Shown one piece after another: positions 1 to 30,712 of a stretch of DNA of 64,000 nucleotides. The stretch spans positions 124,001 to 188,000 of the forward strand of contig OZ024742.1 of the NCBI GenBank assembly GCA_964016885.1. Direction: 5' to 3'. The notes beneath the pieces were generated by a model. The model saw only the letters and a program-made list of their open reading frames with translations, was not told where the DNA came from and searched no databases. The translations under genes and the position numbers were made by a program. The stretch comes from Eledone cirrhosa (taxonomy: Eukaryota). The number at the start of each line of letters is the position of its first letter. The stretch's first letter is position 1.

Positions 1-3000
1 ACCCTCAACGTACATTCAACAGTAACCACCCTAACCCTAACCCTCAACGTACATTCAACAGTAACAACCCTAACCCTAACCCTAACCGTCAACGTACATT
101 CAACAGTAACCACCCTAACCCTAACCCTAACTCTAACCCTAACCACCCTAACCCTAACCCTCAACGTACATTCAACAGTAACCACCCTAACCCTAACCCT
201 AACCCTCAACGTACATTCAACAGTAACCACCCTAACCCTAACCCTAACCCTCAACGTACATTCAACAGTAACCACGCTAATCCTAACCCTAACCCTCAAC
301 GTACATTCAACAGTAACCACCCTAACCCTAACCCTAACCCTCAACGTACATTCAACAGTAACCACCCTAACCCTAACCCTCAACGTACATTCAACAGTAA
401 CCACCCTAACCCTAACCCTAACCCTCAACGTACATTCAACAGTAACCACTCTAACCCTAACCCTAACCCTCAACGTACATTCAACAGTAACCACCCTAAC
501 CCTAACCCTAACCCTCAACGTACATTCAACAGTAACCACTCTAACCCTAACCCTAACCCTCAACGTACATTCAACAGTAACCACCCTAACCCTAACCCTC
601 AACGTACATTCAACAGTAACCACCCTAACCCTAACCCTAACCCTCAACGTACATTCAACAGTAACCACCCTAACCCGAACCCTAACCCTCAACGTACATT
701 CAACTGTAACCATTCTAACCCTAACCCTCAACGTACATTCAACAGTAACCACTCTAACCCTAACCCTAACCCTCAACGTACATTCAACAGTAACCACCCT
801 AACCCTAACCCTCAACGTACATTCAACAGTAACCACCCTAACCCTAACCCTAACCCTCAACGTACATTCAACAGTAACCACTCTAACCCTAACCCTAACC
901 CTCAACGTACATTCAACAGTAACCACCCTAACCCTAACCCTCAACGTACATTCAACAGTAACCACCCTAACCCTAACCCTAACCCTCAACGTACATTCAA
1001 CAGTAACCACTCTAACCCTAACCCTAACCCTCAACGTACATTCAACAGTAACCACCCTAACCCTAACCCTCAACGTACATTCAACAGTAACCACCCTAAC
1101 CATAACCCTAACCCTCAACGTACATTCAACAGTAACCACCCTAACCCTAACCCTAACCCTCAACGTACATTCAACAGTAACCACCCTAACCCTAACCCTC
1201 AAAGTACATTCAACAGTAACCACCCTAACCCTAACCCTAACCCTCAACGTACATTCAACAGTAACCACCCTAACCCTAACCCTCAACGTACATTCAACAG
1301 TAACCACCCAAACCCTAACCCTAACCCTCAACGTACATTCAACAGTAACCACCCTAACCCTAACCCTAACCCTCAACGTACATTCAACAGTAACCACCCT
1401 AACCCTAACCCTAACCCTCAACGTACATTCAACAGTAACCACTCTAACCCTAACCCTAACCCTCAACGTACATTCAACAGTAACCACCCTAACCCTAACC
1501 CTCAACGTACATTCAACAGTAACCACCCTAACCCTAACCCTAACCCTCAACGTACATTCAACAGTAACCACCCTAACCCTAACCCTAACCCTCAACGTAC
1601 ATTCAACAGTAACCACTCTAACCCTAACCCTAACCCTCAACGTACATTCAACAGTAACCACCCTAACCCTAACCCTCAACGTACATTCAACAGTAACCAC
1701 TCTAACCCTAACCCTAACCCTCAACGTACATTCAACAGTAACCACCCTAACCCTAACCCTAACCCTCAACGTACATTCAACAGTAACCACTCTAACCCTA
1801 ACCCTAACCCTCAACGTACATTCAACAGTAACCACCCTAACCCTAACCCTCAACGTACATTCAACAGTAACCACCCTAACCCTAACCCTAACCCTCAACG
1901 TACATCCAACAGTAACCACCATAACCCTAACCCTAACCCTCAACGTACATTCAACTGTAACCATTCTAACCCTAACCCTCAACGTACATTCAACAGTAAC
2001 CACTCTAACCCTAACCCTAACCCTCAACGTACATTCAACAGTAACCACCCTAACCCTAACCCTCAACGTACATTCAACAGTAACCACCCTAACCCTAACC
2101 CTAACCCTCAACGTACATTCAACAGTAACCACTCTAACCCTAACCCTCAACGTACATTCAACAGTAACCACCCTAACCCTAACCCTCAACGTACATTCAA
2201 CAGTAACCACCCTAACCCTAACCCTAACCCTCAACGTACATTCAACAGTAACCACTCTAACCCTAACCCTAACCCACAACGTACATTCAACAGTAACCAC
2301 CCTAACCCTAACCCTCAACGTACATTCAACAGTAACAACCCTAACCCTAACCCTAACCCTCAAAGTACATTCAACAGTAACCACCCTAACCCTAACCCTA
2401 ACCCTCAACGTACATTCAACAGTAACCAACCTAACCCTAACCCTCAACGTACATTCAACAGTAACCACCCTAACCCTAACCCTAACCCTCAACGTTCATT
2501 CAACAGTAACCACCCTAACCCTAACCCTCAACGTACATTCAACAGTAACCACCCTAACCCTAACCCTAACCCTCAACGTACATTCAACAGTAACCACCCT
2601 AACCCTAACCCTAACCCTCAACGTACATTCAACAGTAACCACTCTAACCCTAACCCTAACCCTCAACGTACATTCAACAGTAACCACCCTAACCCTAACC
2701 CTCAACGTACATTCAACAGTAACCACCCTAACCCTAACCCTAACCCTCAACGTACATTCAACAGTAACCACCCTAACCCTAACCCTAACCCTCAACGTAC
2801 ATTCAACAGTAACCACTCTAACCCTAACCCTAACCCTCAACGTACATTCAACAGTAACCACCCTAACCCTAACCCTCAACGTACATTCAACAGTAACCAC
2901 TCTAACCCTAACCCTAACCCTCAACGTACATTCAACAGTAACCACCCTAACCCTAACCCTAACCCTCAACGTACATTCAACAGTAACCACTCTAACCCTA

Positions 3001-6000
3001 ACCCTAACCCTCAACGTACATTCAACAGTAACCACCCTAACCCTAACCCTCAACGTACATTCAACAGTAACCACCCTAACCCTAACCCTAACCCTCAACG
3101 TACATTCAACAGTAACCACCCTAACCCTAACCCTAACCCTCAACGTACATTCAACTGTAACCATTCTAACCCTAACCCTCAACGTACATTCAACAGTAAC
3201 CACTCTAACCCTAACCCTAACCCTCAACGTACATTCAACAGTAACCACCCTAACCCTAACCCTCAACGTACATTCAACAGTAACCACCCTAACCCTAACC
3301 CTAACCCTCAACGTACATTCAACAGTAACCACTCTAACCCTAACCCTAACCCTCAACGTACATTCAACAGTAACCACCCTAACCCTAACCCTTAACGTAC
3401 ATTCAACAGTAACCACCCTAACCCTAACCCTAACCCTCAACGTACATTCAACAGTAACCACTCTAACCCTAACCCTAACCCTCAACGTACATTTAACAGT
3501 AACCACCCTAACCCTAACCCTCAACGTACATTCAACAGTAACCACCCTAACCCTAACCCTAACCCTCAACGTACATTCAACAGTAACCACCCTAACCCTA
3601 TCCCTAACCCTCAACGTACATTCAACAGTAACCACCCTAACCCTAACCCTCAACGTACATTCAACAGTAACCACCCTAACCCTAACCCTAACCCTCAACG
3701 TACACTCAACAGTAACCACCCTAACCCTAACCCTCAACGTACATTCAACAGTAACCACCCTAACCCTAACCCTCAACGTACATTCAACAGTAACAACCCT
3801 AACCCTAACCCTAACCGTCAACGTACATTCAACAGTAACCACCCTAACCCTAACCCTAACTCTAACCCTAACCACCCTAACCCTAACCCTCAACGTACAT
3901 TCAACAGTAACCACCCTAACCCTAACCCTAACCCTCAACGTACATTCAACAGTAACCACCCTAACCCTAACCCTAACCCTCAACGTACATTCAACAGTAA
4001 CCACGCTAATCCTAACCCTAACCCTCAACGTACATTCAACAGTAACCACCCTAACCCTAACCCTAACCCTCAACGTACATTCAACAGTAACCACCCTAAC
4101 CCTAACCCTCAACGTACATTCAACAGTAACCACCCTAACCCTAACCCTAACCCTCAACGTACATTCAACAGTAACCACTCTAACCCTAACCCTAACCCTC
4201 AACGTACATTCAACAGTAACCACCCTAACCCTAACCCTAACCCTCAACGTACATTCAACAGTAACCACTCTAACCCTAACCCTAACCCTCAACGTACATT
4301 CAACAGTAACCACCCTAACCCTAACCCTCAACGTACATTCAACAGTAACCACCCTAACCCTAACCCTAACCCTCAACGTACATTCAACAGTAACCACCCT
4401 AACCCGAACCCTAACCCTCAACGTACATTCAACTGTAACCATTCTAACCCTAACCCTCAACGTACATTCAACAGTAACCACTCTAACCCTAACCCTAACC
4501 CTCAACGTACATTCAACAGTAACCACCCTAACCCTAACCCTCAACGTACATTCAACAGTAACCACCCTAACCCTAACCCTAACCCTCAACGTACATTCAA
4601 CAGTAACCACTCTAACCCTAACCCTAACCCTCAACGTACATTCAACAGTAACCACCCTAACCCTAACCCTCAACGTACATTCAACAGTAACCACCCTAAC
4701 CCTAACCCTAACCCTCAACGTACATTCAACAGTAACCACTCTAACCCTAACCCTAACCCTCAACGTACATTCAACAGTAACCACCCTAACCCTAACCCTC
4801 AACGTACATTCAACAGTAACCACCCTAACCATAACCCTAACCCTCAACGTACATTCAACAGTAACCACCCAAACCCTAACCCTAACCCTCAACGTACATT
4901 CAACAGTAACCACCCTAACCCTAACCCTCAAAGTACATTCAACAGTAACCACCCTAACCCTAACCCTAACCCTCAACGTACATTCAACAGTAACCACCCT
5001 AACCCTAACCCTCAACGTACATTCAACAGTAACCACCCAAACCCTAACCCTAACCCTCAACGTACATTCAACAGTAACCACCCTAACCCTAACCCTAACC
5101 CTCAACGTACATTCAACAGTAACCACCCTAACCCTAACCCTAACCCTCAACGTACATTCAACAGTAACCACTCTAACCCTAACCCTAACCCTCAACGTAC
5201 ATTCAACAGTAACCACCCTAACCCTAACCCTCAACGTACATTCAACAGTAACCACCCTAACCCTAACCCTAACCCTCAACGTACATTCAACAGTAACCAC
5301 CCTAACCCTAACCCTAACCCTCAACGTACATTCAACAGTAACCACTCTAACCCTAACCCTAACCCTCAACGTACATTCAACAGTAACCACCCTAACCCTA
5401 ACCCTCAACGTACATTCAACAGTAACCACTCTAACCCTAACCCTAACCCTCAACGTACATTCAACAGTAACCACCCTAACCCTAACCCTAACCCTCAACG
5501 TACATTCAACAGTAACCACTCTAACCCTAACCCTAACCCTCAACGTACATTCAACAGTAACCACCCTAACCCTAACCCTCAACGTACATTCAACAGTAAC
5601 CACCCTAACCCTAACCCTAACCCTCAACGTACATCCAACAGTAACCACCATAACCCTAACCCTAACCCTCAACGTACATTCAACTGTAACCATTCTAACC
5701 CTAACCCTCAACGTACATTCAACAGTAACCACTCTAACCCTAACCCTAACCCTCAACGTACATTCAACAGTAACCACCCTAACCCTAACCCTCAACGTAC
5801 ATTCAACAGTAACCACCCTAACCCTAACCCTAACCCTCAACGTACATTCAACAGTAACCACTCTAACCCTAACCCTCAACGTACATTCAACAGTAACCAC
5901 CCTAACCCTAACCCTCAACGTACATTCAACAGTAACCACCCTAACCCTAACCCTAACCCTCAACGTACATTCAACAGTAACCACTCTAACCCTAACCCTA

Positions 6001-9000
6001 ACCCACAACGTACATTCAACAGTAACCACCCTAACCCTAACCCTCAACGTACATTCAACAGTAACAACCCTAACCCTAACCCTAACCCTCAAAGTACATT
6101 CAACAGTAACCACCCTAACCCTAACCCTAACCCTCAACGTACATTCAACAGTAACCAACCTAACCCTAACCCTCAACGTACATTCAACAGTAACCACCCT
6201 AACCCTAACCCTAACCCTCAACGTTCATTCAACAGTAACCACCCTAACCCTAACCCTCAACGTACATTCAACAGTAACCACCCTAACCCTAACCCTAACC
6301 CTCAACGTACATTCAACAGTAACCACCCTAACCCTAACCCTAACCCTCAACGTACATTCAACAGTAACCACTCTAACCCTAACCCTAACCCTCAACGTAC
6401 ATTCAACAGTAACCACCCTAACCCTAACCCTCAACGTACATTCAACAGTAACCACCCTAACCCTAACCCTAACCCTCAACGTACATTCAACAGTAACCAC
6501 TCTAACCCTAACCCTAACCCTCAACGTACATTCAACAGTAACCACCCTAACCCTAACCCTCAACGTACATTCAACAGTAACCACTCTAACCCTAACCCTA
6601 ACCCTCAACGTACATTCAACAGTAACCACCCTAACCCTAACCCTAACCCCCAACGTACATTCAACAGTAACCACTCTAACCCTAACCCTAACCCTCAACG
6701 TACATTCAACAGTAACCACCCTAACCCTAACCCTCAACGTACATTCAACAGTAACCACCCTAACCCTAACCCTAACCCTCAACGTACATTCAACAGTAAC
6801 CACCCTAACCCTAACCCTAACCCTCAACGTACATTCAACTGTAACCATTCTAACCCTAACCCTCAACGTACATTCAACAGTAACCACTCTAACCCTAACC
6901 CTAACCCTCAACGTACATTCAACAGTAACCACCCTAACCCTAACCCTCAACGTACATTCAACAGTAACCACCCTAACCCTAACCCTAACCCTCAACGTAC
7001 ATTCAACAGTAACCACTCTAACCCTAACCCTAACCCTCAACGTACATTCAACAGTAACCACCCTAACCCTAACCCTTAACGTACATTCAACAGTAACCAC
7101 CCTAACCCTAACCCTAACCCTCAACGTACATTCAACAGTAACCACTCTAACCCTAACCCTAACCCTCAACGTACATTTAACAGTAACCACCCTAACCCTA
7201 ACCCTCAACGTACATTCAACAGTAACCACCCTAACCCTAACCCTAACCCTCAACGTACATTCAACAGTAACCACCCTAACCCTATCCCTAACCCTCAACG
7301 TACATTCAACAGTAACCACCCTAACCCTAACCCTCAACGTACATTCAACAGTAACCACCCTAACCCTAACCCTCAACGTACATTCAACAGTAACCACCCT
7401 AACCCTAACCCTAACCCTCAACGTACACTCAACAGTAACCACCCTAACCCTAACCCTCAACGTACATTCAACAGTAACCACCCTAACCCTAACCCTCAAC
7501 GTACATTCAACAGTAACAACCCTAACCCTAACCCTAACCGTCAACGTACATTCAACAGTAACCACCCTAACCCTAACCCTAACTCTAACCCTAACCACCC
7601 TAACCCTAACCCTCAACGTACATTCAACAGTAACCACCCTAACCCTAACCCTAACCCTCAACGTACATTCAACAGTAACCACCCTAACCCTAACCCTAAC
7701 CCTCAACGTACATTCAACAGTAACCACGCTAATCCTAACCCTAACCCTCAACGTACATTCAACAGTAACCACCCTAACCCTAGCCCTAACCCTCAACGTA
7801 CATTCAACAGTAACCACCCTAACCCTAACCCTCAACGTACATTCAACAGTAACCACCCTAACCCTAACCCTAACCCTCAACGTACATTCAACAGTAACCA
7901 CTCTAACCCTAACCCTAACCCTCAACGTACATTCAACAGTAACCACCCTAACCCTAACCCTAACCCTCAACGTACATTCAACAGTAACCACTCTAACCCT
8001 AACCCTAACCCTCAACGTACATTCAACAGTAACCACCCTAACCCTAACCCTCAACGTACATTCAACAGTAACCACCCTAACCCTAACCCTAACCCTCAAC
8101 GTACATTCAACAGTAACCACCCTAACCCGAACCCTAACCCTCAACGTACATTCAACTGTAACCATTCTAACCCTAACCCTCAACGTACATTCAACAGTAA
8201 CCACTCTAACCCTAACCCTAACCCTCAACGTACATTCAACAGTAACCACCCTAACCCTAACCCTCAACGTACATTCAACAGTAACCACCCTAACCCTAAC
8301 CCTAACCCTCAACGTACATTCAACAGTAACCACTCTAACCCTAACCCTCAACGTACATTCAACAGTAACCACCCTAACCCTAACCCTCAACGTACATTCA
8401 ACAGTAACCACCCTAACCCTAACCCTAACCCTCAACGTACATTCAACAGTAACCACTCTAACCCTAACCCTAACCCTCAACGTACATTCAACAGTAACCA
8501 CCCTAACCCTAACCCTCAACGTACATTCAACAGTAACCACCCTAACCATAACCCTAACCCTCAACGTACATTCAACAGTAACCACCCTAACCCTAACCCT
8601 AACCCTCAACGTACATTCAACAGTAACCACCCTAACCCTAACCCTCAAAGTACATTCAACAGTAACCACCCTAACCCTAACCCTAACCCTCAACGTACAT
8701 TCAACAGTAACCACCCTAACCCTAACCCTCAACGTACATTCAACAGTAACCACCCAAACCCTAACCCTAACCCTCAACGTACATTCAACAGTAACCACCC
8801 TAACCCTAACCCTAACCCTCAACGTACATTCAACAGTAACCACCCTAACCCTAACCCTAACCCTCAACGTACATTCAACAGTAACCACTCTAACCCTAAC
8901 ACTAACCCTCAACGTACATTCAACAGTAACCACCCTAACCCTAACCCTCAACGTACATTCAACAGTAACCACCCTAACCCTAACCCTAACCCTCAACGTA

Positions 9001-11142
9001 CATTCAACAGTAACCACCCTAACCCTAACCCTAACCCTCAACGTACATTCAACAGTAACCACTCTAACCCTAACCCTAACCCTCAACGTACATTCAACAG
9101 TAACCACCCTAACCCTAACCCTCAACGTACATTCAACAGTAACCACTCTAACCCTAACCCTAACCCTCAACGTACATTCAACAGTAACCACCCTAACCCT
9201 AACCCTAACCCTCAACGTACATTCAACAGTAACCACTCTAACCCTAACCCTAACCCTCAACGTACATTCAACAGTAACCACCCTAACCCTAACCCTCAAC
9301 GTACATTCAACAGTAACCACCCTAACCCTAACCCTAACCCTCAACGTACATCCAACAGTAACCACCATAACCCTAACCCTAACCCTCAACGTACATTCAA
9401 CTGTAACCATTCTAACCCTAACCCTCAACGTACATTCAACAGTAACCACTCTAACCCTAACCCTAACCCTCAACGTACATTCAACAGTAACCACCCTAAC
9501 CCTAACCCTCAACGTACATTCAACAGTAACCACCCTAACCCTAACCCTAACCCTCAACGTACATTCAACAGTAACCACTCTAACCCTAACCCTCAACGTA
9601 CATTCAACAGTAACCACCCTAACCCTAACCCTCAACGTACATTCAACAGTAACCACCCTAACCCTAACCCTAACCCTCAACGTACATTCAACAGTAACCA
9701 CTCTAACCCTAACCCTAACCCACAACGTACATTCAACAGTAACCACCCTAACCCTAACCCTCAACGTACATTCAACAGTAACAACCCTAACCCTAACCCT
9801 AACCCTCAAAGTACATTCAACAGTAACCACCCTAACCCTAACCCTAACCCTCAACGTACATTCAACAGTAACCAACCTAACCCTAACCCTCAACGTACAT
9901 TCAACAGTAACCACCCTAACCCTAACCCTAACCCTCAACGTTCATTCAACAGTAACCACCCTAACCCTAACCCTCAACGTACATTCAACAGTAACCACCC
10001 TAACCCTAACCCTAACCCTCAACGTACATTCAACAGTAACCACCCTAACCCTAACCCTAACCCTCAACGTACATTCAACAGTAGCCACTCTAACCCTAAC
10101 CCTAACCCTCAACGTACATTCAACAGTAACCACCCTAACCCTAACCCTCAACGTACATTCAACAGTAACCACCCTAACCCTAACCCTAACCCTCAACGTA
10201 CATTCAACAGTAACCACCCTAACCCTAACCCTAACCCTCAACGTACATTCAACAGTAACCACTCTAACCCTAACCCTAACCCTCAACGTACATTCAACAG
10301 TAACCACCCTAACCCTAACCCTCAACGTACATTCAACAGTAACCACTCTAACCCTAACCCTAACCCTCAACGTACATTCAACAGTAACCACCCTAACCCT
10401 AACCCTAACCCTCAACGTACATTCAACAGTAACCACTCTAACCCTAACCCTAACCCTCAACGTACATTCAACAGTAACCACCCTAACCCTAACCCTCAAC
10501 GTACATTCAACAGTAACCACCCTAACCCTAACCCTAACCCTCAACGTACATTCAACAGTAACCACCATAACCCTAACCCTAACCCTCAACGTACATTCAA
10601 CTGTAACCATTCTAACCCTAACCCTCAACGTACATTCAACAGTAACCACTCTAACCCTAACCCTAACCCTCAACGTACATTCAACAGTAACCACCCTAAC
10701 CCTAACCCTCAACGTACATTCAACAGTAACCACCCTAACCCTAACCCTAACCCTCAACGTACATTCAACAGTAACCACTCTAACCCTAACCCTCAACGTA
10801 CATTCAACAGTAACCACCCTAACCCTAACCCTCAACGTACATTCAACAGTAACCACCCTAACCCTAACCCTAACCCTCAACGTACATTCAACAGTAACCA
10901 CTCTAACCCTAACCCTAACCCTCAACGTACATTCAACAGTAACCACCCTAACCCTAACCCTCAACGTACATTCAACAGTAACCACCCTAACCCTAACCCT
11001 AACCCTCAACGTACATTCAACAGTAACCACCCTAACCCTAACCCTAACCCTCAACGTACATTCAACAGTAACCACCCTAACCCTAACCCTCAACGTACAT
11101 TCAACAGTAACCACCCTAACCCTAACCCTAACCCTCAACGTT
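1..11142. repeat. Higher-order repeat of ~3.72-3.73 kb built from ~1.2-kb subunits
   Basis: Rare variants recur in register: ACCGTC at 88/3817/7540; ACGTTCATT at 2496/6225/9942/11142; AACTGTAACCATT at 702, 1953, 3153, 4431, 5682, 6837, 8154, 9399, 10599. Confidence 0.9.
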
Positions 11143-14100
11143 CATTCAACAGTAACCACCCTAACCCTAACCCTCAACGTACATTCAACAGTAACCACCC
11201 TAACCCTAACCCTCAACGTACATTCAACAGTAACCACCCTAACCCTAACCCTAACCCTCAACGCACATTCAACAGTAACCACCCTAACCCTAACCCTAAC
11301 CCTCAACGTACATTCAACAGTAACCACTCTAACCCTAACCCTAACCCTCAACGTACATTCAACAGTAACCACCCTAACCCTAACCCTCAACGTACATTCA
11401 ACAGTAACCACCCTAACCCTAACCCTAACCCTCAACGTACATTCAACAGTAACCACCCTAACCCTAACCATAACCCTCAACGTACATTCAACAGTAACCA
11501 CTCTAACCCTAACCCTAACCCTCAACGTACATTCAACAGTAACCACCCTAACCCTAACCCTCAACGTACATTCAACAGTAACCACTCTAACCCTAACCCT
11601 AACCCTCAACGTACATTCAACAGTAACCACCCTAACCCTAACCCTAACCCTCAACGTACATTCAACAGCAACCACTCTAACCCTAACCCTAACCCTCAAC
11701 GTACATTCAACAGTAACCACCCTAACCCTAACCATCAACGTACATTCAACAGTAACCACCCTAACCCTAACCCTAACCCTCAACGTACATTCAACAGTAA
11801 CCACCATAACCCTAACCCTAACCCTCAACGTACATTCAACTGTAACCATTCTAACCCTAACCCTCAACGTACATTCAACAGTAACCACTCTAACCCTAAC
11901 CCTAACCCTCAACGTACATTCAACAGTAACCACCCTAACCCTAACCCTCAACGTACATTCAACAGTAACCACCCTAACCCTAACCCTAACCCTCAACGTA
12001 CATTCAACAGTAACCACTCTAACCCTAACCCTCAACGTACATTCAACAGTAACCACCCTAACCCTAACCCTCAACGTACTTTCAACAGTAACCACCCTAA
12101 CCCTAACCCTAAGCCTCAACGTACATTCAACAGTAACCACTCTAACCCTAACCCTAACCCTCAACGTACATTCAACAGTAACCACCCTAACCCTAACCCT
12201 CAACGTACATTCAACAGTAACCACCCTAACCCTAACCCTAACCCTCAACGTACATTCAACAGTAACCACCCTAACCCTAACCCTAACCCTGAACGTACAT
12301 TCAACAGTAACCACCCTAACCCTAACCCTCAACGTACATTCAACAGTAACCACCCTAACCCTAACCCTAACCCTCAACGTACATTCAACAGTAACCACCC
12401 TAACCCTAACCCTAACCCTCAACGTACATTCAACAGTAACCACCCTAACCCTAACCCTAACCCTCAACGTACATTCAACAGTAACCACCCTAACCCTAAC
12501 CCTCAACGTACATTCAACAGTAACCACCCTAACCCTAACCCTAACCCTCAACGTACATTCAACAGTAACCACCCTAACCCTAACACTAACCCTAAACGTA
12601 CATTCAACAGTAACCACCCTAACCCTAACCCTAACCCTCAACGTACATTCAACAGTAACCACCCTAACCCTAACCCTCAACGTACATTCAACAGTAACCA
12701 CCCTAACCCTAACCCTAACCCTCAACGTACATTCAACAGTAACCACCCTAACCCTAACCCTAACCCTCAACGTACATTCAACAGTAACCACCCTAACCCT
12801 AACCCTAACCCTCAACGTACATTCAACAGTAACCACCCTAACCCTAACCCTCAACGTACATTCAACAGTAACCACCCTAATCCTAACCCTAACCCTCAAC
12901 GTACATTCAACAGTAACCACCCTAACCCTAACCCTAACCCTCAACGTACATTCAACAGTAACCACCCTAACCCTAACCCTAACCCTCAACGTACATTCAA
13001 CAGTAACCACCCTAACCCTAACCCTCAACGTACATTCAACAGTAACCACCATAACCCTAACCCTAACCCTCAACATACATTCAACAGTAACCACCCTAAC
13101 CCTAACCCTCAACGTACATTCAACATTAACCACCCTAACCCTAACCCTAACCCTCAACGTACATTCAACAGTAACCACCCTAACCCTAACCCTCAACGTA
13201 CATTCAACAGTAACCACCCTAACCCTAACCCTAACCCTCAACGTACATTCAACAGTAACCACCCTAACCCTAATCCTCAACGTACATTCAACAGTAACAA
13301 CCCTAACCCTAACCCTAACCCTCAACGTACATTCAACAGTAACCACCCTAACCCTAACCCTAACCCTAACCACCCTAACCCTAACCCTCAACGTACATTC
13401 AACAGTAACCACCCTAACCCTAACCCTAACCCTCAACGTACATTCAACAGTAACCACTCTAACCCTAACCCTAACCCTCAACGTACATTCAACAGTAACC
13501 AGCCTAACCCTAACCCTAACCCTCAACGTACATTCAACAGTAACCACCCTAATCCTAACCCTAACCCTCAACGTATATTCAACAGTAACCACCCTAACCC
13601 TAACCCTCAACGTACATTCAACAGTAACAACCCTAACCCTAACCCTAACCCTCAACGTACATTCAACAGTAACCACCCTAACCCTAACCCTAACCCTCAA
13701 CGTACATTCAACAGTAACCACCCTAACCCTAACCCTCAACGTACATTCAACAGTAACAACCCTAACCCTAACCCTCAACGTACATTCAACAGTAACCACC
13801 CTAACCCTAACCCTAGCCCTAACCCTAACCCTAACCACCCTAACCCTAACCCTCAACGTACATTCAACAGTAACCACCCTAACCCTAACCCTAACCCTCA
13901 ACGTACATTCAACAGTAACCACTCTAACCCTAACCCTAACCCTCAACGTACATTCAACAGTAACCACCCTAACCCTAACCCTAACCCTCAACGTACATTC
14001 AACAGTAACCACCCTAACCCTAACCCTAACCCTCAACGTACATTCAACAGTAACCACCCTAACCCTAACCCTCAACGTACATTCAACAGTAACAACCCTA

Positions 14101-17100
14101 ACCCTAACCCTAACCCTAAACGTACATTCAACAGTAACCTCCCTAACCCTAACCCTAACCCTCAACGTACATTCAACAGTAACCACTCTAACCCTAACCC
14201 TAACCCTCAACGTACATTCAACAGTAACCACCCTAACCCTAACCCTAACCCTCAACGTACATTCAACAGTAATCACTCTAACCCTAACCCTAACCCTCAA
14301 CGTACATTCAACAGTAACCACCCTAACCCTAACTCTAACCCTCAACGTACATTCAACAGTAACCACCCTAACCCTAACCCTAACCCTCAACGTACATTCA
14401 ACAGTAACCACCCTAACCCTAACCCTAACCCTCAACGTACATTCAACAGTAACCACCCTAACCCTAACCCTAACCCTCAACGTACATTCAACAGTAACCA
14501 CCCTAACCCTAACCCTAACCCTAACCCTCAACGTACATTCAACAGTAACCACCCTAACCCTAACCCTAACCCTCAACGTACATTCAACAGTAACCACTCT
14601 AACCCTAAACCTAACCCTCAACGTACATTCAACAGTAACCACCCTAACCCTAACCCTCAACGTACATTCAACAGTAACCACTCTAACCCTAACCCTAACC
14701 CTCAACGTACATTCAACAGTAACCACCCTAACCCTAACCCTAACCCTCAACGTACATTCAACAGTAACCACCCTAACCCTAACCCTAACCCTCAACGTAC
14801 ATTCAACAGTAACCACTCTAACCCTAACCCTAACCCTCAACGTACATTCAACAGTAACCACCCTAACCCTAACCCTCAACGTACATTCAACAGTAACCAC
14901 TCTAACCCTAACCCTAACCCTCAACGTACATTCGACAGTAACCACCCTAACCCTAACCCTAACCCTCAACGTACATTCAACAGTAACCACTCTAACCCTA
15001 ACCCTAACCCTCAACGTACATTCAACAGTAACCACCCTAACCCTAACCCTCAACGTACATTCAACAGTAACCACCCTAACCCTAACCCTAACCCTCAACG
15101 TACATTCAACAGTAACCACCCTAACCCTAACCCTAACCCTCAACGTACATTCAACTGTAACCATTCTAACCCTAACCCTCAACGTACATTCAACATTAAC
15201 CACTCTAACCCTAACCCTAACCCTCAACGTACATTCAACAGTAACCACCCTAACCCTAACCCTCAACGTACATTCAACAGTAACCACCCTAACCCTAACC
15301 CTAACTCTCAACGTACATTCAACAGTAACCACCCTAACCCTAACCCTCAACGTACATTCAACAGTAACCACCCTAACCCTAACCCTAACCCTCAACGTAC
15401 ATTCAACAGTAACCACTCTAACCCTAACCCTAACCCTCAACGTACATTCAACAGTAACCACCCTAACCCTAACCCTCAACGTACATTCAACAGTAACCAC
15501 CCTAACCCTAACCCTAACCCTCAACGTACATTCAACAGTAACCACCCTAATCCTAACCCTAACCCTCAACGTACATTCAACAGTAACCACCCTAACCCTA
15601 ACCCTCAACGTACATTCAACAGTAACCACCCTAACCCTAACCCTCAACGTACATTCAACAGTAACCACCCTAACCCTAACCCTAACCCTCAACGTACATT
15701 CAACAGTAACCACCCTAACCCTAACCCTCAACGTACATTCAACAGTAACCACCCTAACCCTAACCCTCAACGTACATTCAACAGTAACAACCCTAACCCT
15801 AACCCTAACCGTCAACGTACATTCAACAGTAGCCACCCTAACCCTAACCCTAACCCTAACCCTAACCACCCTAACCCTAACCCTCAACGTACATTCAACA
15901 GTAACCACCCTAACCCTCACCCTAACCCTCAACGTACATTCAACAGTAACCACTCTAACCCTAACCCTAACCCTCAACGTACATTCAACAGTAACCACCC
16001 TAACCCTAACCCTAACCCTCAACGTACATTCAACAGTAACCACGCTAATCCTAACCCTAACCCTCAACGTATATTCAACAGTAACCACCCTAACCCTAAC
16101 CCTCATCGTACATTCAACAGTAACAACCCTAACCCTAACCCTAACCCTCAACGTACATTCAACAGTAACCACCCTAACCCTAACCCTAACCCTCAACGTA
16201 CATTCAACAGTAACCACCCTAACCCTAACCCTCAACGTACATTCAACAGTAACCACCCTAACCCTAACCCTAACCCTCAACGTACATTCAACAGTAACAA
16301 CCCTAACCCTAACCCTAACCCTCAACGTACATTCAACAGTAACCACCCTAAACCTAACCCTAACCCTCAACGTACATTCAACAGTAACAACCCTAACCCT
16401 AACCCTCAACGTACATTCAACGGTAACCACCCTAACCCTAACCCTCAACGTACATTCAACAGTAACCACCCTAACCCTAACCCTAACCCTCAACGTACAT
16501 TCAACAGTAACCACCCTAACCCTAACCCTCAACGTACATTCAACAGTAACCACCCTAACCCTAACCCTAACCCTCAACGTACATTCAACAGTAACCACCC
16601 TAACCCTAACCCTAACCCTCAACGTACATTCAACAGTAACCACCCTAACCCTAACCCTCAACGTACATTCAACAGTAACCACCCTAACCCTAACCCTAAC
16701 CCTCAACGTACATTCAACAGTAACAACCCTAACCCTAACCCTAACCCTCAACGTACATTCAACAGTAACCACCCTAACCCTAACCCTAACCCTCAACGTA
16801 CATTCAACAGTAACAACCCTAACCCTAACCCTCAACGTACATTCAACAGTAACCACCCTAACCCTAACCCTCAACGTACATTCAACAGTAACCACCCTAA
16901 CCCTAACCCTAACCCTCAACGTACATTCAACAGTAACAACCCTAACCCTAACCCTAACCCTCAACGTACATTCAACAGTAACCACCCTAACCCTAACCCT
17001 AACCCTCAACGTACATTCAACAGTAACAACCCTAACCCTAACCCTCAACGTACATTCAACAGTAACCACCCTAACCCTAACCCTCAACGTACATTCAACA

Positions 17101-20100
17101 GTAACCACCCTAACCCTAACCCTAACCCTCAACGTACATTCAACAGTAACCACCCTAACCCTAACCCTCAACGTACATTCAACAGTAACCACCCTAACCC
17201 TAACCCTAACCCTCAACGTACATTCAACAGTAACCACTCTAACCCTAACCCTAACCCTCAACGTACATTCAACAGTAACCACCCTAACCCTAACCCTCAA
17301 CGTACATTCAACAGTAACCACCCTAACCCTAACCCTAACCCTCAACGTACATTCAACAGTAACCACCCTAACCCTAACCCTAACCCTCAACGTACATTCA
17401 ACAGTAACCACCCTAACCCTAACCCTCAACGTACATTCAACAGTAACCACCCTAACCCTAACCCTAACCCTCAACGTACATTCAACAGTAACCACCCTAA
17501 CCCTAACCCTCAACGTACATTCAACAGTAACCACCCTAACCCTAACCCTCAACGTACATTCAACAGTAACCACCCTAACCCTAACCCTAACCCTCAACGT
17601 ACATTCAACAGTAACCACTCTAACCCTAACCCTAACCCTCAACGTACATTCAACAGTAACCACCCTAACCCTAACCCTCAACGTACATTCAACAGTAACC
17701 ACCCTAACCCTAACCCTAACCCTCAACGTACATTCAACAGTAACCACCCTAACCCTAACCCTCAACGTACATTCAACAGTAACCACCCTAACCCTAACCC
17801 TAACCCTCAACGTACATTCAACAGTAACCACTCTAACCCTAACCCTAACCCTCAACGTACATTCAACAGTAACCACCCTAACCCTAACCCTCAACGTACA
17901 TTCAACAGTAACCACCCTAACCCTAACCCTAACCCTCAACGTACATTCAACAGTAACCACCCTAACCCTAACCCTAACCCTCAACGTACATTCAACAGTA
18001 ACCACCCTAACCCTAACCCTCAACGTACATTCAACAGTAACCACCCTAACCCTAACCCTAACCCTCAACGTACATTCAACAGTAACCACCCTAACCCTAA
18101 CCCTCAACGTACATTCAACAGTAACCACCCTAACCCTAACCCTAACCCTCAACGTACATTCAACAGTAACCACCCTAACCCTAACCCTCAACGTACATTC
18201 AACAGTAACCACCCTAACCCTAACCCTCAACGTACATTCAACAGTAACCACCCTAACCCTAACCCTCAACGTACATTCAACAGTAACCACCCTAACCCTA
18301 ACCCTAACCCTCAACGTACATTCAACAGTAACCACCCTAACCCTAATCCTCAACGTACATTCAACAGTAACAACCCTAACCCTAACCCTAACCCTCAACG
18401 TACATTCAACAGTAACCACCCTAACCCTAGCCCTAACCCTCAACGTACATTCAACAGTAACCACCCTAACCCTAACCCTAACCCTCAACGTCCATTCAAC
18501 AGTAACCACCCTAACCCTAACCCTAACCCTCAACGTCCATTCAACAGTAACCACCCTAACCCTAACCCTAACCCTCAACGTCCATTCAACAGTAACCACC
18601 CTAACCCTAACCCTAACCCTCAACGTCCATTCAACAGTAACCACCCTAACCCTAACCCTAACCCTCAACGTACATTCAACAGTAACCACCCTAACCCTAG
18701 CCCTAACCCTCAACGTACATTCAACAGTAACCACCCTAACCCTAACCCTAACCCTCAACGTCCATTCAACAGTAACCACCCTAACCCTAACCCTAACCCT
18801 CAACGTCCATTCAACAGTAACCACCCTAACCCTAACCCTAACCCTCAACGTCCATTCAACAGTAACCACCCTAACCCTAACCCTAACCCTCAACGTCCAT
18901 TCAACAGTAACCACCCTAACCCTAACCCTAACCCTCAACGTCCATTCAACAGTAACCACCCTAACCCTAACCCTAACCCTCAACGTCCATTCAACAGTAA
19001 CCACCCTAACCCTAACCCTAACCCTCAACGTCCATTCAACAGTAACCACCCTAACCCTAACCCTAACCCTCAACGTCCATTCAACAGTAACCACCCTAAC
19101 CCTAACCCTAACCCTCAACGTCCATTCAACAGTAACCACCCTAACCCTAACCCTAACCCTCAACGTCCATTCAACAGTAACCACCCTAACCCTAACCCTA
19201 ACCCTCAACGTCCATTCAACAGTAACCACCCTAACCCTAACCCTCAACGTACATTCAACAGTAACCACCCTAACCCTAACCCTAACCCTCAACGTCCATT
19301 CAACAGTAACCACCCTAACCCTAACCCTAACCCTCAACGTACATTCAACAGTAACCACCCTAACCCTAACCCTAACCCTCAACGTCCATTCAACAGTAAC
19401 CACCCTAACCCTAACCCTAACCCTCAACGTACATTCAACAGTAACCACCCTAACCCTAACCCTAACCCTCAACGTCCATTCAACAGTAACCACCCTAACC
19501 CTAACCCTAACCCTCAACGTACATTCAACAGTAACCACCCTAACCCTAACCCTAACCCTCAACGTACATTCAACAGTAACCACCCTAACCCTAACCCTAA
19601 CCCTCAACGTCCATTCAACAGTAACCACCCTAACCCTAACCCTAACCCTCAACGTCCATTCAACAGTAACCACCCTAACCCTAACCCTAACCCTCAACGT
19701 ACATTCAACAGTAACCACCCTAACCCTAACCCTAACCCTCAACGTCCATTCAACAGTAACCACCCTAACCCTAACCCTAACCCTCAACGTCCATTCAACA
19801 GTAACCACCCTAACCCTAACCCTAACCCTCAACGTCCATTCAACAGTAACCACCCTAACCCTAACCCTAACCCTCAACGTACATTCAACAGTAACCACCC
19901 TAACCCTAACCCTAACCCTCAACGTCCATTCAACAGTAACCACCCTAACCCTAACCCTAACCCTCAACGTACATTCAACAGTAACCACCCTAACCCTAAC
20001 CCTAACCCTCAACGTACATTCAACAGTAACCACCCTAACCCTAACCCTAACCCTCAACGTCCATTCAACAGTAACCACCCTAACCCTAACCCTAACCCTC

Positions 20101-21054
20101 AACGTCCATTCAACAGTAACCACCCTAACCCTAACCCTAACCCTCAACGTCCATTCAACAGTAACCACCCTAACCCTAACCCTAACCCTCAACGTCCATT
20201 CAACAGTAACCACCCTAACCCTAACCCTAACCCTCAACGTACATTCAACAGTAACCACCCTAACCCTAACCCTCAACGTACATTCAACAGTAACAACCCT
20301 AACCCTAACCCTCACCCTCAACGTACATTCAACAGTAACCACCCTAACCCTAACCCTAACCCTCAACGTACATTCAACAGTAACCACCCTAACCCTAACC
20401 CTAACCCTCAACGTACATTCAACAGTAACCACCCTAACCCTAACCCTCAACGTCCATTCAACAGTAACCACCCTAACCCTAACCCTAACCCTCAACGTAC
20501 ATTCAACAGTAACCACCCTAACCCTAACCCTAACCCTCAACGTACATTCAACAGTAACCACCCTAACCCTAACCCTAACCCTCAACGTACATTCAACAGT
20601 AACAACCCTAACCCTAACCCTCACCCTCAACGTACATTCAACAGTAACCACCCTAACCCTAACCCTAACCCTCAACGTACATTCAACAGTAACAACCCTA
20701 ACCCTAACCCTCACCCTCAACGTACATTCAACAGTAACCACCCTAACCCTAACCCTAACCCTCAACGTACATTCAACAGTAACCACCCTAACCCTAACCC
20801 TAACCCTCAACGTACATTCAACAGTAACCACCCTAACCCTAACCCTCAACGTCCATTCAACAGTAACCACCCTAACCCTAACCCTAACCCTCAACGTACA
20901 TTCAACAGTAACCACCCTAACCCTAACCCTAACCCTCAACGTACATTCAACAGTAACCACCCTAACCCTAACCCTAACCCTCAACGTACATTCAACAGTA
21001 ACCACCCTAACCCTAACCCTAACCCTCAACGTACATTCAACAGTAACCCTAACC
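1..21054 (+). repeat. Telomere-motif compound tandem array: (CCCTAA)2-3 + CCCTCAACGTACATTCAACAGTAACCA (39- or 45-bp units), running off the window start
   Basis: Read directly. The unit repeats continuously until ...CAGTAACCCTAACC|GGATAC at ~21054. The C-rich strand is on +. No long pure (CCCTAA)n tract occurs in the window. Confidence 0.97.
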
Positions 21055-21204
21055 GGATACACTCTGCTCAATAGCAGCTGTCACCTTCACCAATCAATGT
21101 CTGCTAATCTTATCATCTGTTTATTTAAGGTTTATCTTTTTAATGATTATCTTTCTTATTCCCACCTTTATTTGTTTAATATTGTCAGACCTTGTTTACT
21201 TGCG

Positions 21205-21267
21205 TCCTCGTCGTCGTCGCCGTCGCCGTCGTCGTCGTCGTCGTCGTCGTCCTCGTCGTCGTCGTCG

Positions 21268-21299
<32 letters not shown>

Positions 21300-21320
21300 G
21301 CAGCTGCTGCTGCTGCTGTT
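21205..21320 (+). repeat. Compound trinucleotide microsatellite (TCG)n-(TTG)n-(CTG)n
   Basis: Read directly. It accounts for the poly-S/L/T ORFs in the ORF track. Confidence 0.95.
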
Positions 21321-21419
21321 GATATTGTAGTATGTTCGGAATTAAGATAAGTTGCAAGACCGCCATCATTTAAAACATGTTCGGAGTTAAGTTTACTTGT
21401 TATCACAGGCTACAACAAA

Positions 21420-22279
21420 TGGTCAGTCATCACCATTAATCTCTCTATTCTCTATTACATGCAGCAGGGTCTCAGTGTTGTGACCTGATGTTGTTGGACC
21501 AGGATTTTCTTTCTCTACCTCTTCTTTGCCCTCTCCCCGAGAGTTTCCATCTTTTCACCATCTCAAGGATGGTGGTTCCTGTCTGCCAACATATTTGTTG
21601 CCTGACAAAGCTTTGTTTTGTGTTCCATGTATGAGATGTCTAGTAACCATCTGAATCACCTGTGCTCGAATTTCAGGAATCTTCATTCCATGACAGCTGT
21701 GAGGGTCCAATTCTCACACTCATACAAAAGGATTAAAGTCAACAAGGACTTCTATAATTTGTGATTTGCTGGAGACTGATCGAGTTGCTCTTCCATATGA
21801 CATTCAGCTATAACATGGTAGAAGTGGACAGGGTGAGTTTTGTCAGTAACTCCTTTTGAGATTCACCATCTTAGATCAGAGTGGATCCTAGGTACTTGGA
21901 GGTGTCCACTTCTTCAAGTCTTCCTTGGTTCAGCATGGTGTTGGTTGCTGTATTCTGGTTATTACTATTAACCCAAATCTTGCTCTTTTCTGAGCTGATC
22001 TCCATTCCATATGCTCCTGATACATTTATCAGTCTGGTAATGATCTCCTGGAGTTCTGCTTCACTGCTTCCTAACGGTTCAATATCATCAGCAAATCGTA
22101 GGTTGGAAATGGGCCATCTTTCAATGGAAACAGGGGTGGGGGAATCTTGAAGAGTCTCTTACATGATGGTTTCCAGAAAAATGTTGAAAAGGACTGGAGA
22201 AAGAAGACACCCTTGTTGAACTCCCCCAATGTTGTTATTCAGGAGAACTGCACTGTTTCAGTTGTCATTCATTGTTTTA
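21420..22279 (-). mobile_element. Decayed RTE-like non-LTR retrotransposon, 3' part (RT domain C-terminal half)
   Basis: Minus-strand motifs SAVLLNN (~22225-22245), GVQQGCLLSPVLFNIF (~22177-22225), ISNLRFADDI (22081-22110), KYLGS (~21884-21898), LLYECENWTL (~21701-21730), with stops and frameshifts. The 3' boundary is approximate. Confidence 0.88.
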
Positions 22280-22385
22280 CTAGCAGAGGTACCCGGCGTT
22301 TCCCGGTATAACTCTCAATGGAGTAGTCGTTCAAATGAACCGAAAGACTTCCGTTAAACACGATTATAGAAGTAATAATTTATAG

Positions 22386-22959: not shown

Positions 22960-25900
22960 TACCTTCAAAACTTCCTTATAGACTATATGTTGGGTTTTCT
23001 CGCGAGCTGCAAAGGCAAATAGGTTATGTCGGCTCCCCACTCGAGAGCAGCCAACATATGGTTGACCATTGGAGGAGCACGGTTCTTCTAAATTAAGCCC
23101 TACGACTGTCAGCATCTGACCCTATGATTTGTTAATCGACATGGCAAAACTGAGTCGGAGAGGGAATTGCAGCCTTCTGAATGTGAAAGGAATGTCTTTT
23201 CCGGATGGAATGAGAGGTATCCTTGGTATTAAGACAGTATCCCCCTTACCACATCCTGTAAGTATTGTTGCTTCAATAACATGAGGCATCGCCTTTTGGA
23301 TGACCAGACGCGTGCCGTTGGAAAGCCTTCGGAGTTCCAAATTCCTGAGGAGCATGACAGGGGCACCTTTCTTAAGTCACAGTAAGTGTGGTGGCAATCC
23401 GGGAGGGTCTAGGGAGTTAAGAAATTATGTGGGGTAATTAACAACTTCGTCCGGATCAGCCATAGAGTCAAGGGACTTGTAGACGTGCAGATTTCGAGGC
23501 AAGCACAGCATGAGCTGTTCATGGTGTTTCCAACTATGTTGTTTTTCGAAGCCAATATTGCGCGTTCACACAACCACTCTTGATTTGTGTAGTTCTCCTC
23601 AAGATTAGGAAAAACAGACGTCCGTAACTCAGCAATTGACTTAACTCATCTGCAAATCCCTGTGAGGTCCGCTGCACCATCTCCGTCGAGTGGGACTTTG
23701 CCATCTCCTAACAACAAAATGGCAGCAGCAAAACCCGCTGATGTCTCATCACCTTGCAGTTGTGCTCTCATGTTTGTTGTAAGCGTCAGCTTTCTTACAT
23801 AGCGCCAAAGTGGCGAGGCCTTAAGGCATGCACCAACCTCATCAGCCCGTGTACCTTTTGGGATTACAGGCAGAGTCTGTCAGAAGTCCCCAGATAACAA
23901 GAAAGTGACACCTCCCGTTGGTTCTTGACAGTCCCTGATGTCTCTGAGTGACCGGTCTAATGCATCGAAAGCCGCCCCGTGGGCCATTGTGCATTCGTCC
24001 CAAACAATTAGTAGGCAGCGCTTTAACACCAGTGCTTTTCCGGAAGACTTGCTGATGTTGCACGTGGGTGTCTCAGATGATGCCACGTTGAGAGGAAGAC
24101 TGAAGGCAGAATGGGCCGTCCTACCGCCAGGCAGCAAAGTTAAGGAATGCCGGAAGAAGCCACGGCCAATGCGATGTTTCCGTGTTGCCTCACTGCAGCG
24201 AGTAAAAGTTTGATTACAAATGTTTTTCCCGTGCCTCCAGGTGCGTCGAGGAAGAATATACCCCCCTCTCCGATTACGGATGGAATCAACGACAATGTTG
24301 TAGGCTTGTTTTTGATCCATTAGAAGTTTTGGTTCATTCTCTTCAACATACCTTTTGAATTCGTCGACATCCTATGACGTTTCACGTATAATGTCGTTGG
24401 GAATGTCAGATGGCGCATCTCGAAGTGTTTGCGGAAGCCCATATTTCTCCAAGACATCTCCGCCCATTGAAGCCACTCTGTCTTCAATATCGATCAGAGC
24501 TCTGTTATATATAGCGTCTGAAAAGCCGACATCTAAGTTTTGAGATTGCAATTGAACGAGACGCCTATATTCGTCTGCGAAATCATGTTTAAACTTTTGC
24601 CATAAAGAGTAAGCATCAATTCACAGACGTGAAAGAGGATAGCAAAAAGTGCTCTTAGACTACGGGATGATTGTGAGATGGCAGCTTTCGTCAAGGTTGC
24701 ATCCCATTGTGCGTCATCTTCTAAAAGTCCACGCCTCAAGCAGGCTTCCCTGTACGTTCCACAGGCATATCCATCGACGGTTCTCAGATGAGTGAAGCTG
24801 GTCGGCCCTCTTACCTCATGAAGCAGATGTCGCAGGTAGAAGCATTCGTATTGGGTAGGGTGGACCGTATAAACTCGCCCAAGGCAATTGTCGAATTTGA
24901 TGCCTGGATGTCCAACCACCTCTTGCCCTACCTTCCTTCGTAGCCATTTTGTCCGGTTCTATGTATAGTAAGACGGTATTTCAGAATACAGCAGAGTTCG
25001 AGCGAAGTCGTCGTGTTGACAAAGTTTGAAAAAAGCGGTGAGTGTAGTTTCCTTTGGTGAGATCGCTAGCTGAGCAGCTGTTGCATCGTTGAAATACACC
25101 CGTTGACCGTTTTCAAGGTGAACGACAAGTTGTTTAATGACGGGGTGTCGTTGGTGCAGTGGGAAGCTAAAAACGCGCCAAAAGGCTTCATTGTTGCTAA
25201 TGTATCGAACTGCTTGATAGTCAGATACCTCGTCTCTACTGTTTTCATGACGAAGACCAAAGACGGCAGCATCCGATCCCTTGTTTAAGTACTTACAAAC
25301 GTATTTAATTGATTTTACTGAGTTGCAAAATTCGACGTTTATATGGGCGTTGAACGCTTTCAAAAGGGGGGGGGGCAATATGGCACTATCCATCTGTTGT
25401 CGATTTCGCGTTCACCAACTTTTGCTGTGAACCCACCGTCTTCAGGTCTCCTGCGCCTATACAACGGATATCCGTCACCGCCAGTCTGTGTTTCCTGTAA
25501 AAACGGCGGGCCGTTTTTACAGGAAACAGTTTCCGTCGTGTATGCACGGGGACTTCATATTGAGTCCATGTCCGCAAGGACCATGGACCATGTTTGATGT
25601 GGCTATAGAGAAGAGGTCCTTGTCAATCGACGGATCAGGTAGTTCGGCAGAAGTGAATTTGTCGATGTAGTTTGAACTGATTTTTGTAACCAACCAAATC
25701 AAGATATGGGCATGCGGTAGCCCTCGTTTCTGCCATTCAACCGTGTACATGTCGCACCTGACAGGCCCAAAAACCTGTCCTTTCTTTAATAAATCCATTA
25801 ATTTGGATAATTTCAGGCGAAACACTCTTGCTATGAGAGCGTGCCTGTGTCTTGGCGCTTGACCGTGGAACAGTTCGTTTGTAATCTCCTTCCACTTGGG

Positions 25901-30667: not shown

Positions 30668-30712
<45 letters not shown>

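Follow-up and report, generated by a model that had tools for sequence, protein, structure and literature searches.

Telomeric hexamers punctuated at regular intervals by a fixed 27-nt spacer fill the first third of a 64,000-nucleotide stretch of the Eledone cirrhosa assembly (the window; C3:124,001-188,000 of the 378.9-Mb contig C3), which raises the question of whether such an array caps a chromosome, accompanies a telomere as a satellite, or lies inside the chromosome. An initial annotation of the window proposed either a telomere-associated satellite born from a patch of variant repeats or the functional cap itself, in the form of a complex-repeat telomere. With a probability of about 80%, we read the array as a single-locus 73.7-kb subterminal satellite, likely telomere-derived and likely grown in blocks, which is not a cap in this assembly. 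The features of the window are as follows.

Window 1-21054, + strand (C-rich strand): compound array, proximal 21 kb, in which a 27-nt spacer and two to three CCCTAA hexamers together form units of 39/45 bp.
Window 1-17400, + strand: part of the array with a higher-order periodicity of ~3.72 kb, in which blocks recur at 3,723-3,729 bp and 7,452 bp.
Window 18486-20847, + strand: locally homogenised patch with an A-to-C variant of the spacer (CGTCCATTC), 30 units, mostly 45 nt apart.
Window 21040-21202, + strand: proximal boundary, sharp at 21,054, with the last spacer, then a truncated CCCTAACC, then unique sequence.
Window 21203-21320, + strand: trinucleotide microsatellites (CGT)n(GTT)n(GCT)n adjoining the array.

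The compound array first described by the initial annotation is real, and runs in a single orientation through the proximal part of the window, where Tandem Repeats Finder returns one array from position 1 to 21,048/21,054 (period 45, 488.6 copies, 89% matches, score 32,878) and the GC skew is -0.79 to -0.81 over the first 20 kb. Its + strand reads CCCTCAACGTACATTCAACAGTAACCA + (CCCTAA)2-3, of which the previously proposed G-strand unit is the exact reverse complement. Of the 484 spacers in the window, 375 are exact 27-mers, and the spacer-to-spacer distance is 45 nt in 329 and 39 nt in 147 of 483 cases. As had also been annotated, these 21 kb contain no long pure telomeric tract; pure CCCTAA runs comprise two (222 runs), three (222), four (3), or at most five hexamers (1). 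The reported size of more than 21 kb holds as a lower bound, the window containing only the proximal 21 kb of an array that spans C3:71,387-145,054 (73.7 kb), with 52.6 kb lying to the left of the window.

Over this whole array the spacer accounts for 60% of the sequence in ~1,650 copies (1,649 counted), including 1,297 exact spacer cores between C3:71,391 and 145,027, and there are 1,159 runs of at least two perfect CCCTAA hexamers, the longest with seven. Exact anchors are never more than 306 nt apart; no interruption is longer than about 300 bp, and no transposon was found inside the array. At the one CpG of the spacer, five C-to-T and four G-to-A changes occur among the 1,649 spacers, and all 30 copies of the A-to-C variant lie inside C3:142,486-144,847. 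The long open frames that pass through the array (e.g. 4,664 aa) were rejected as artefacts because all unit lengths (39, 45, and 51) are multiples of three.

The array is oriented as for a left chromosome end, in agreement with the initial annotation: its C-rich strand is the + strand, no TTAGGG occurs on the + strand inside it, and it begins 71 kb and ends 145 kb from the start of C3. Inspection to the left of the window for a pure (CCCTAA)n cap showed 71 kb of gap-free, non-telomeric DNA distal to the array and no such cap. C3:1-188,000 is free of N, CCCTAA occurs 0-1 times per 4 kb in C3:1-68,000, and the contig starts in an unrelated satellite of 21-24 bp. The distal 71 kb contain other satellites, ORFs for a LINE endonuclease and a LINE reverse transcriptase, two LicD-family ORFs, and old dispersed repeat copies (82-92% identity), and at the distal junction the array gives way abruptly to unique sequence within one contig. 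The idea that the distal flank was recently copied from a different chromosome end was rejected: the matches of C3:62-69 kb are confined to dispersed repeats (82-92% identity) and a nearby duplicate at C3:51.2-52.0 kb with 98% identity. At the level of the assembly the array is interstitial, the finding that the initial annotation had named as speaking against its telomeric reading. No telomere cap is present at either assembled end of C3, and so the true end of this chromosome is not seen.

On the proximal side, a query over the boundary had no other match in the genome at its positions 1-420, and window 21,055-21,420 is unique. A Helitron Rep/helicase lies 2.8 kb from the array (Helitron_like_N, E 2.5e-55; PIF1, E 1.2e-24), together with reverse transcriptase fragments. 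The distal flank has microsatellites of its own, (GAA)n(CAA)n(CAG)n, and a comparison of the two flanks for inverted or direct repeats, such as transposon ends or a target duplication, returned only low-complexity similarity between trinucleotide microsatellites. In a search of sequencing runs, three runs of one sample contained 22-38% of the sampled words and the other runs contained at most 12%.

How many chromosome ends carry the unit, a question left by the initial annotation, has a simple answer: it is confined to one locus. In the 3.0-Gb assembly a 21-mer of the spacer has 1,611 forward and 0 reverse matches with at most one mismatch, and all 1,611 (1,297 + 314) lie inside the array. With a 24-mer and up to three mismatches there are 1,646 forward matches, again all inside the array, and a lone reverse match with three mismatches, which is the level expected by chance (control, 0 forward and 1 reverse). 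The spacer is found in no other contig among 1,796; thus there is no contig in which the array continues into a pure cap. A source for the spacer was likewise not found, either at up to four substitutions in 459,194 other bases examined or above chance genome-wide. The suggestion that a telomerase RNA might carry the spacer beside its template finds no above-chance copy outside the array to draw on. In a search of the genome for TERT with the Pfam Telomerase_RBD model, none of 13 candidates matched; as the control genomes were silent as well, this result does not count as absence of TERT.

The initial annotation had parsed the spacer as decayed hexamers, which the alignments do not bear out. 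In 5000 composition-preserving shuffles of the spacer, the best alignment to (CCCTAA)n was matched or beaten by 1473 in local mode and by 1270 in semi-global mode. The spacer resembles a telomere strand only in its A+C-rich composition; of 5000 random sequences of 40% GC, 306 score equally well. A telomeric origin of the unit is suggested by its hexamers and their end-facing orientation.

Canonical telomeres do exist in this genome. Correctly oriented pure TTAGGG caps, without the spacer, were found at 10 of 40 sampled ends (20 contigs), and four of these were traced to about 12-16 kb (12.5-15.8 kb) with 82-83 hexamers per 500 nt. They are pure distally and have a short variant zone of (CCCCAA)n (TTGGGG-type) proximally, and five capped ends share a sub-cap element of 1.2-1.6 kb at 84-90% identity. 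The other large telomere-type block sampled, at C1:~217.9-218.0 Mb, consists of plain degenerate hexamers.

These results bear on whether the array is a classical sub-cap satellite near a true telomere that an assembly artefact, with the first 71 kb of C3 flipped or chimerically joined at C3:~71.39 kb, has moved inward. The left-end orientation, the distance of 71-145 kb from the contig start, and the lack of a cap at both assembled ends are all in keeping with such an error. Against it, C3:1-188,000 is unbroken by N, the distal junction is sharp and falls within one contig, the absence of the spacer from all other contigs means that the array is never seen to run into a pure cap, and a BLAST search of C3:1-188,000 gave no hit for the sub-cap element of the five genuine ends. 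We consider a misassembly of this kind improbable.

The internal structure of the array points to how it grew. Only 13,498 of its 73,575 100-mers are unique, and identical 100-mers most often lie 3,567 (2,845 cases), 3,522 (2,010), or 3,729 bp (1,222) apart. Blocks of 1 kb reach an identity of 1.0 at offsets of 3,522 and 7,089, and the spacings of marker variants add up to a period of 3,522 or 3,567 bp (e.g. 2041+1526 and 1435+2132). In the proximal part, sub-rows of 6-mers repeat at window positions 66, 3795, and 7518, and identity over 1 kb is 0.999 at an offset of 7,452 (C3:123,381) and 0.916 at an offset of 3,723 (C3:127,381). The array is accordingly organised as a satellite with higher-order repeats, its head-to-tail monomers homogenised in blocks of 3,522, 3,567, or 3,729 bp at up to 100% identity. 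Pure runs make up 17-19% of bases in the distal part (71-113 kb) vs 26-34% in the proximal part (113-143 kb), a gradient that is the reverse of the telomere pattern of pure distal and variant proximal repeats. Tandem duplication of multi-kilobase blocks, and not telomerase, is the likely means by which the array grew.

The array is most likely a subterminal satellite that is telomere-derived and specific to this chromosome, because it occupies a single locus, canonical caps are present elsewhere, and its blocks repeat at up to 100% identity. The telomere-associated satellite of the initial annotation survives in its subterminal position, correct orientation, telomere motifs, and satellite-type higher-order structure; its proposed birth from a patch of variant repeats gains no support from the shuffles above. 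In the proposed course of events, a 27-nt non-telomeric piece would have been acquired by, or come to adjoin, a short telomeric tract that faced the nearby end of the chromosome; amplification of the compound unit would have followed, with unequal sister-chromatid exchange, replication slippage, or gene conversion maintaining its homogeneity.

As a subterminal block of non-terminal hexamer tandems, with other DNA on both sides and one end-facing orientation, the array falls among subtelomeric or large-block interstitial telomeric sequences. The subtelomeric and heterochromatic examples described in PMC6410037 likewise form large, non-terminal, head-to-tail hexamer blocks in subterminal positions, flanked by satellites and transposons. 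Interstitial telomeric sequences are there said to amplify by unequal crossing-over, gene conversion, slippage, or rolling circle, and the growth proposed here would draw on the same mechanisms (PMC6410037). They are elsewhere described as occurring "with or without linker" (PMC9498494). Set against the accounts in these two sources, the present array is distinguished by a fixed 27-nt non-telomeric linker in each unit, a single locus, and clean higher-order repeats of 3.5-3.7 kb (PMC6410037; PMC9498494).

Satellite monomers with embedded TTAGGG are described for PaB6 of the plant Prospero autumnale, in which intact and imperfect TTAGGG motifs are, as here, integral to a longer tandem monomer (PMC4273535). 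The PaB6 monomer is given as 249 bp, in 10^4-10^6 copies at pericentromeric sites on several to all chromosomes (PMC4273535), whereas the present array has a 39/45-bp monomer in ~1,650 copies at one subterminal locus in an animal. Because the monomer contains hexamers, a telomere probe would in both cases label a satellite that is not telomeric. No description of such an array in an octopus or other cephalopod was found in the literature searched.

A second alternative reads the array as a germline fossil left by end repair without telomerase. An ancestral end that had broken or eroded would have been repaired by a type-I-ALT-like or rolling-circle process, with the telomere-flanked 27-nt piece copied repeatedly as a miniature ALT-type template; later this end would have been re-capped and covered by distal DNA. 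The type I ALT templates described from mouse ES cells (mTALT) and C. elegans consist of a unique piece with short telomeric repeats on either side (PMC11551733), and the array resembles them in joining a unique piece to short telomeric repeats, in tandem, in one direction, and with high fidelity. Its orientation towards the nearby end and its near-identical block copies are also as such a history would have them. However, the templates in that account are kilobases long (7.3 kb), arise in telomerase-negative cells and, in the mouse cells, were found at all seven non-fused ends recovered (PMC11551733), whereas here the repeated piece has 27 nt and the compound unit sits at one internal locus, rather than at many terminal ones, in a genome with normal caps. 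The array is moreover non-terminal in the assembly, its distal flank contains old repeat copies, and ordinary unequal exchange predicts higher-order repeats equally well. Such an origin therefore seems unlikely; if true, it would be a natural, heritable case of template-type ALT in an animal with otherwise normal telomeres.

It is more doubtful still that the array expanded from a tandem repeat carried by a mobile element, for example the Helitron 2.8 kb away. The Rep/helicase and reverse transcriptase fragments of the proximal flank suit that origin, and Helitron-type elements in bivalves carry satellite-like arrays. Against it, the spacer occurs in no other element copy in 3.0 Gb, window 21,055-21,420, which separates the array from the first dispersed repeat, is unique sequence, and the flanks have no terminal repeats, their only similarity being that of microsatellites.

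In some dipterans, such as Chironomus, satellite-type telomeres consist of complex tandem repeats near the ends that are maintained by recombination, and every chromosome there ends in these repeats themselves in place of short telomerase repeats; the present array is neither terminal nor shared, and canonical caps are present. The cap put forward by the initial annotation, a functional complex-repeat telomere whose 45-bp unit is made by a long-template telomerase or by satellite-type capping, can for practical purposes be set aside: the many TRF-type half-sites and the G-rich 3'-ward strand polarity agree with it, but the unit is at a single locus with 71 kb of N-free other DNA distal to it, 10 of 40 sampled ends bear pure TTAGGG without the spacer, no spacer copy outside the array could act as an RNA template, the growth pattern is one of block duplication, and the purity gradient is reversed.

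For the subterminal satellite that we favour, motif counts on the G strand give 2,540 YTAGGGTTR half-sites and 506 canonical G-quadruplex motifs. Given these motifs, binding by telomere-repeat-binding proteins and a heterochromatic state would be expected of the array, and its replication could be difficult. Its existence can be explained without any role in the cell.

As an example of a satellite that combines telomeric hexamers with a linker, the array is clean and completely assembled; its one locus looks young, and its higher-order structure is clear. The spacer would serve as a chromosome-specific cytogenetic marker. It is also a warning for telomere calling by hexamer density, as such pipelines would mark the array as a chromosome end. 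For the animal itself, the reading of its telomeres as complex repeats is removed: the caps are plain TTAGGG tracts, accompanied by a short variant zone of the TTGGGG type and by a conserved sub-cap element.

Window positions 1-21,054 form a single tandem array without a break (period 45, 488.6 copies, 89% matches by Tandem Repeats Finder) with a GC skew of about -0.8 along the whole array part of the window. On the plus strand the unit consists of CCCTCAACGTACATTCAACAGTAACCA and then two or three CCCTAA hexamers, and the G-strand unit given in the initial annotation is its exact reverse complement. The window holds 484 of the fixed 27-nt spacers (375 exact 27-mers), spaced 45 nt apart in 329 of 483 intervals and 39 nt apart in 147, and the longest pure hexamer run is five hexamers; these counts, spacings and short runs confirm the earlier observation of a compound array without a long pure telomeric tract. 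The size of more than 21 kb first reported is real and describes the window part only, as the array reaches left to C3:71,387 (C3 is contig OZ024742.1, the window being C3:124,001-188,000) and is therefore 73.7 kb long. Among the 1,649 spacers of the whole array, 1,088 are exact, 450 carry one substitution and 111 carry two to four, and spacer makes up 60% of the array's length.

Spacer sequences were searched across the assembly (2,995,841,428 bases in 1,796 contigs; C3 is 378.9 Mb). A 21-nt spacer core (≤1 mismatch) gave 1,611 forward and 0 reverse matches, the former being 1,297 + 314 copies inside C3:71,391-145,027. All 1,646 forward matches of a 24-mer (≤3 mismatches) fall within the array, and its single reverse match, on contig C1, is no more than the control yields by chance (1). 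Every above-chance match thus lies inside the array, and the unit is used nowhere else in the assembly. Genome-wide, the spacer was found on no other chromosome end, unplaced contig or candidate RNA-template gene, so that neither the same unit at other ends nor a telomerase RNA template containing the spacer (≤3 mismatches), both raised earlier, was recovered.

The sequence left of the window (C3:1-124,000) was examined in full and contains no pure (CCCTAA)n cap, which had been proposed as a check; distal to the array (toward the contig start) no telomere was found in C3:1-71 kb, which comprises the following.

Features distal to the array
C3:1 to ~19 kb (~19 kb), G/T-rich on the plus strand: AT-rich satellite with a 21-24-bp unit, unrelated to the array, opening the contig
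C3:20-71 kb: mixed DNA
C3:50,560-52,008 and C3:62,189-63,178, plus strand: two ORFs of the LicD family (E 1.1e-14 and 3.4e-14)

The mixed DNA also includes LINE-type endonuclease and reverse-transcriptase ORFs, satellites built from units of 40 and 28 bp, and dispersed repeats whose copies, spread genome-wide, are 82-92% identical. The two LicD-family ORFs share 98% identity across 850 nt, a local duplication. On the minus strand of C3:41,800-43,800, a repetitive frame that stays open for up to 643 aa, repeating GAVVHHLLQSSGTSSLTEQWYIFSY, is probably a tandem repeat with a unit length that is a multiple of three, and no gene. The distal junction is sharp, with (GAA)n(CAA)n(CAG)n and then unique sequence leading directly into spacer. 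Within its last 20 kb, C3 finishes on the right in a different satellite (unit roughly 25 bp) and not in a cap, and a telomere is absent from both assembled ends of C3.

The left and right ends of 20 contigs, 40 altogether, were sampled for genuine telomeres, and interstitial blocks were located with pure (CCCTAA)10, which has 17,395 forward and 17,677 reverse overlapping matches genome-wide, large interstitial blocks among them.

Telomeric tracts elsewhere (L, left end; R, right end of a contig)
C5R, C6R, C7L, C9L, C10L, C13L, C13R, C14R, C18R, C19L: capped ends
C1:217.86-218.01 Mb, G-strand: very large block midway along a 443-Mb contig (~150 kb spanned by the first matches listed)

At the 10 capped ends of 40, the closing hexamer tract has the correct orientation and the terminal 6 kb contains 445-998 hexamers; the remaining 30, like both ends of C3, terminate in other repeats or unique DNA. 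Four caps traced inward are ~12.5-15.8 kb long and essentially pure (82-83 hexamers per 500 nt), and a (CCCCAA)n variant zone forms the proximal edge at C6R, C14R and C19L, where junctions were seen. Directly beneath the cap, C14R, C19L, C6R, C5R and C7L have in common a 1.2-1.6-kb element at 84-90% identity; this sub-cap element has internal inverted matches and is carried by at least five chromosome ends. Two 10-kb samples of the C1 block (217.89-217.90 and 217.995-218.005 Mb) consist of degenerate hexamers (78% matches, frequent TTAGCTG) and contain no linker. Four contigs measure 379-443 Mb and many others 37-136 Mb.

A misjoin at C3:~71.39 kb, which would place the array truly beneath a cap, is improbable: the contig has no gaps (zero N bases in C3:1-188,000), no contig links the array to a cap, and BLAST found no match to the sub-cap element in C3:1-188,000. 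A fossil of type-I-ALT-like maintenance is just as improbable, given a single internal locus and a piece of 27 nt, although the unit architecture agrees with that described for mTALT (PMC11551733).

Proximal to the array, the window contains several other elements.

Features in the remainder of the window
21,422-22,280: fragment of a dispersed repeat carrying reverse transcriptase (at least 64 matches, many contigs)
23,880-26,596, perhaps to 27,578, minus strand: Helitron-type Rep/helicase ORFs, split over several frames
27,185-27,465: coding tandem repeat (69 bp, 4.1 copies) in the upstream ORF
30,619-30,934: compound repeat rich in TA, with a period of 120 and also of 71 and 49
33,216-64,000 (C3:157,216-188,000), probably further: second large satellite, 833.5 copies of a 37-bp unit (94% matches, GC 0.58)

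The fragment at 21,422-22,280 is the first repeat beyond the unique proximal flank of the array, and dozens of its copies, among the matches listed, have 74-82% identity. The TA-rich repeat is composed of (TA)n and the inverted pair ACACACAGAAATG / CATTTCTGTGTGT. A short inverted repeat (CCACC...GGTGG) lies within the 37-bp unit, which has 840 forward and 0 reverse matches genome-wide (≤2 mismatches), 689 of them within the window, so about 150 lie beyond its right edge or elsewhere. The Helitron-type ORFs (Helitron_like_N, E 2.5e-55; PIF1-like helicase, E 1.2e-24) lie 2.8 kb from the array, yet no further copy of the unit was found outside the array and a transposon-borne origin is very improbable. 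A functional complex-repeat cap, one of two readings in the initial annotation, is wrong as nearly as can be judged, every testable criterion contradicting it: the array is a single locus, internal in the assembly, and other ends carry pure TTAGGG caps.

The array is best read as a chromosome-specific, subterminal, telomere-motif satellite, that is, a linker-containing interstitial telomeric sequence. The other original reading, a telomere-associated satellite, was essentially right, corrected to a 74-kb element at one locus only and internal in the assembly. Identical 100-mers recur most often at spacings of 3,567 (2,845 cases), 3,522 (2,010) and 3,729 (1,222), and 13,498 of 73,575 100-mers are unique. 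Blocks of 1 kb are 100% identical at offsets of 3,522 and 7,089 and 99.9% identical at 3,567 and 7,452. Recurrence spacings of single-base spacer variants add up to the block length (e.g. 2041+1526, 1435+2132); several variants are present in 24-30 copies each, and 30 units with one variant cluster locally (window 18,486-20,847). No interruption exceeds 306 nt, whereas both flanks are rich in transposon copies, and bases in perfect runs rise from 17-19% in the distal two-thirds to 26-34% in the proximal third, a gradient opposite to that of telomerase-made caps in this genome. These features point to growth by satellite-type block duplication and homogenisation and not by the terminal addition of single units.

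Perfect hexamers oriented toward the nearby chromosome end suggest a telomeric origin. The proposal that the spacer consists of decayed hexamers fails, as shuffles match or beat it in 1473/5000 (local) and 1270/5000 (semi-global) trials; it resembles the telomeric C strand only in its A+C-rich composition. For subtelomeric and heterochromatic interstitial telomeric sequences, the routes of amplification described are unequal crossing-over, gene conversion, slippage or rolling circle (PMC6410037), and such sequences occur with or without a linker (PMC9498494). In Prospero, the satellite PaB6 has seven TTAGGG embedded in a 249-bp monomer (PMC4273535), and a crayfish repeatome paper cites plant examples of telomeric repeats within satellites (PMC7859515). 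The array belongs with these linker-type interstitial telomeric sequences and TTAGGG-embedding satellites but stands out by its regular 27-nt linker, one locus and clean higher-order structure; a limited literature search found no earlier account of an array like this from cephalopods or other molluscs. On the G strand lie 2,540 YTAGGGTTR half-sites and 506 G-quadruplex motifs of canonical form, from which the array is predicted to bind telomere-repeat proteins, to be heterochromatic and to be difficult to replicate.
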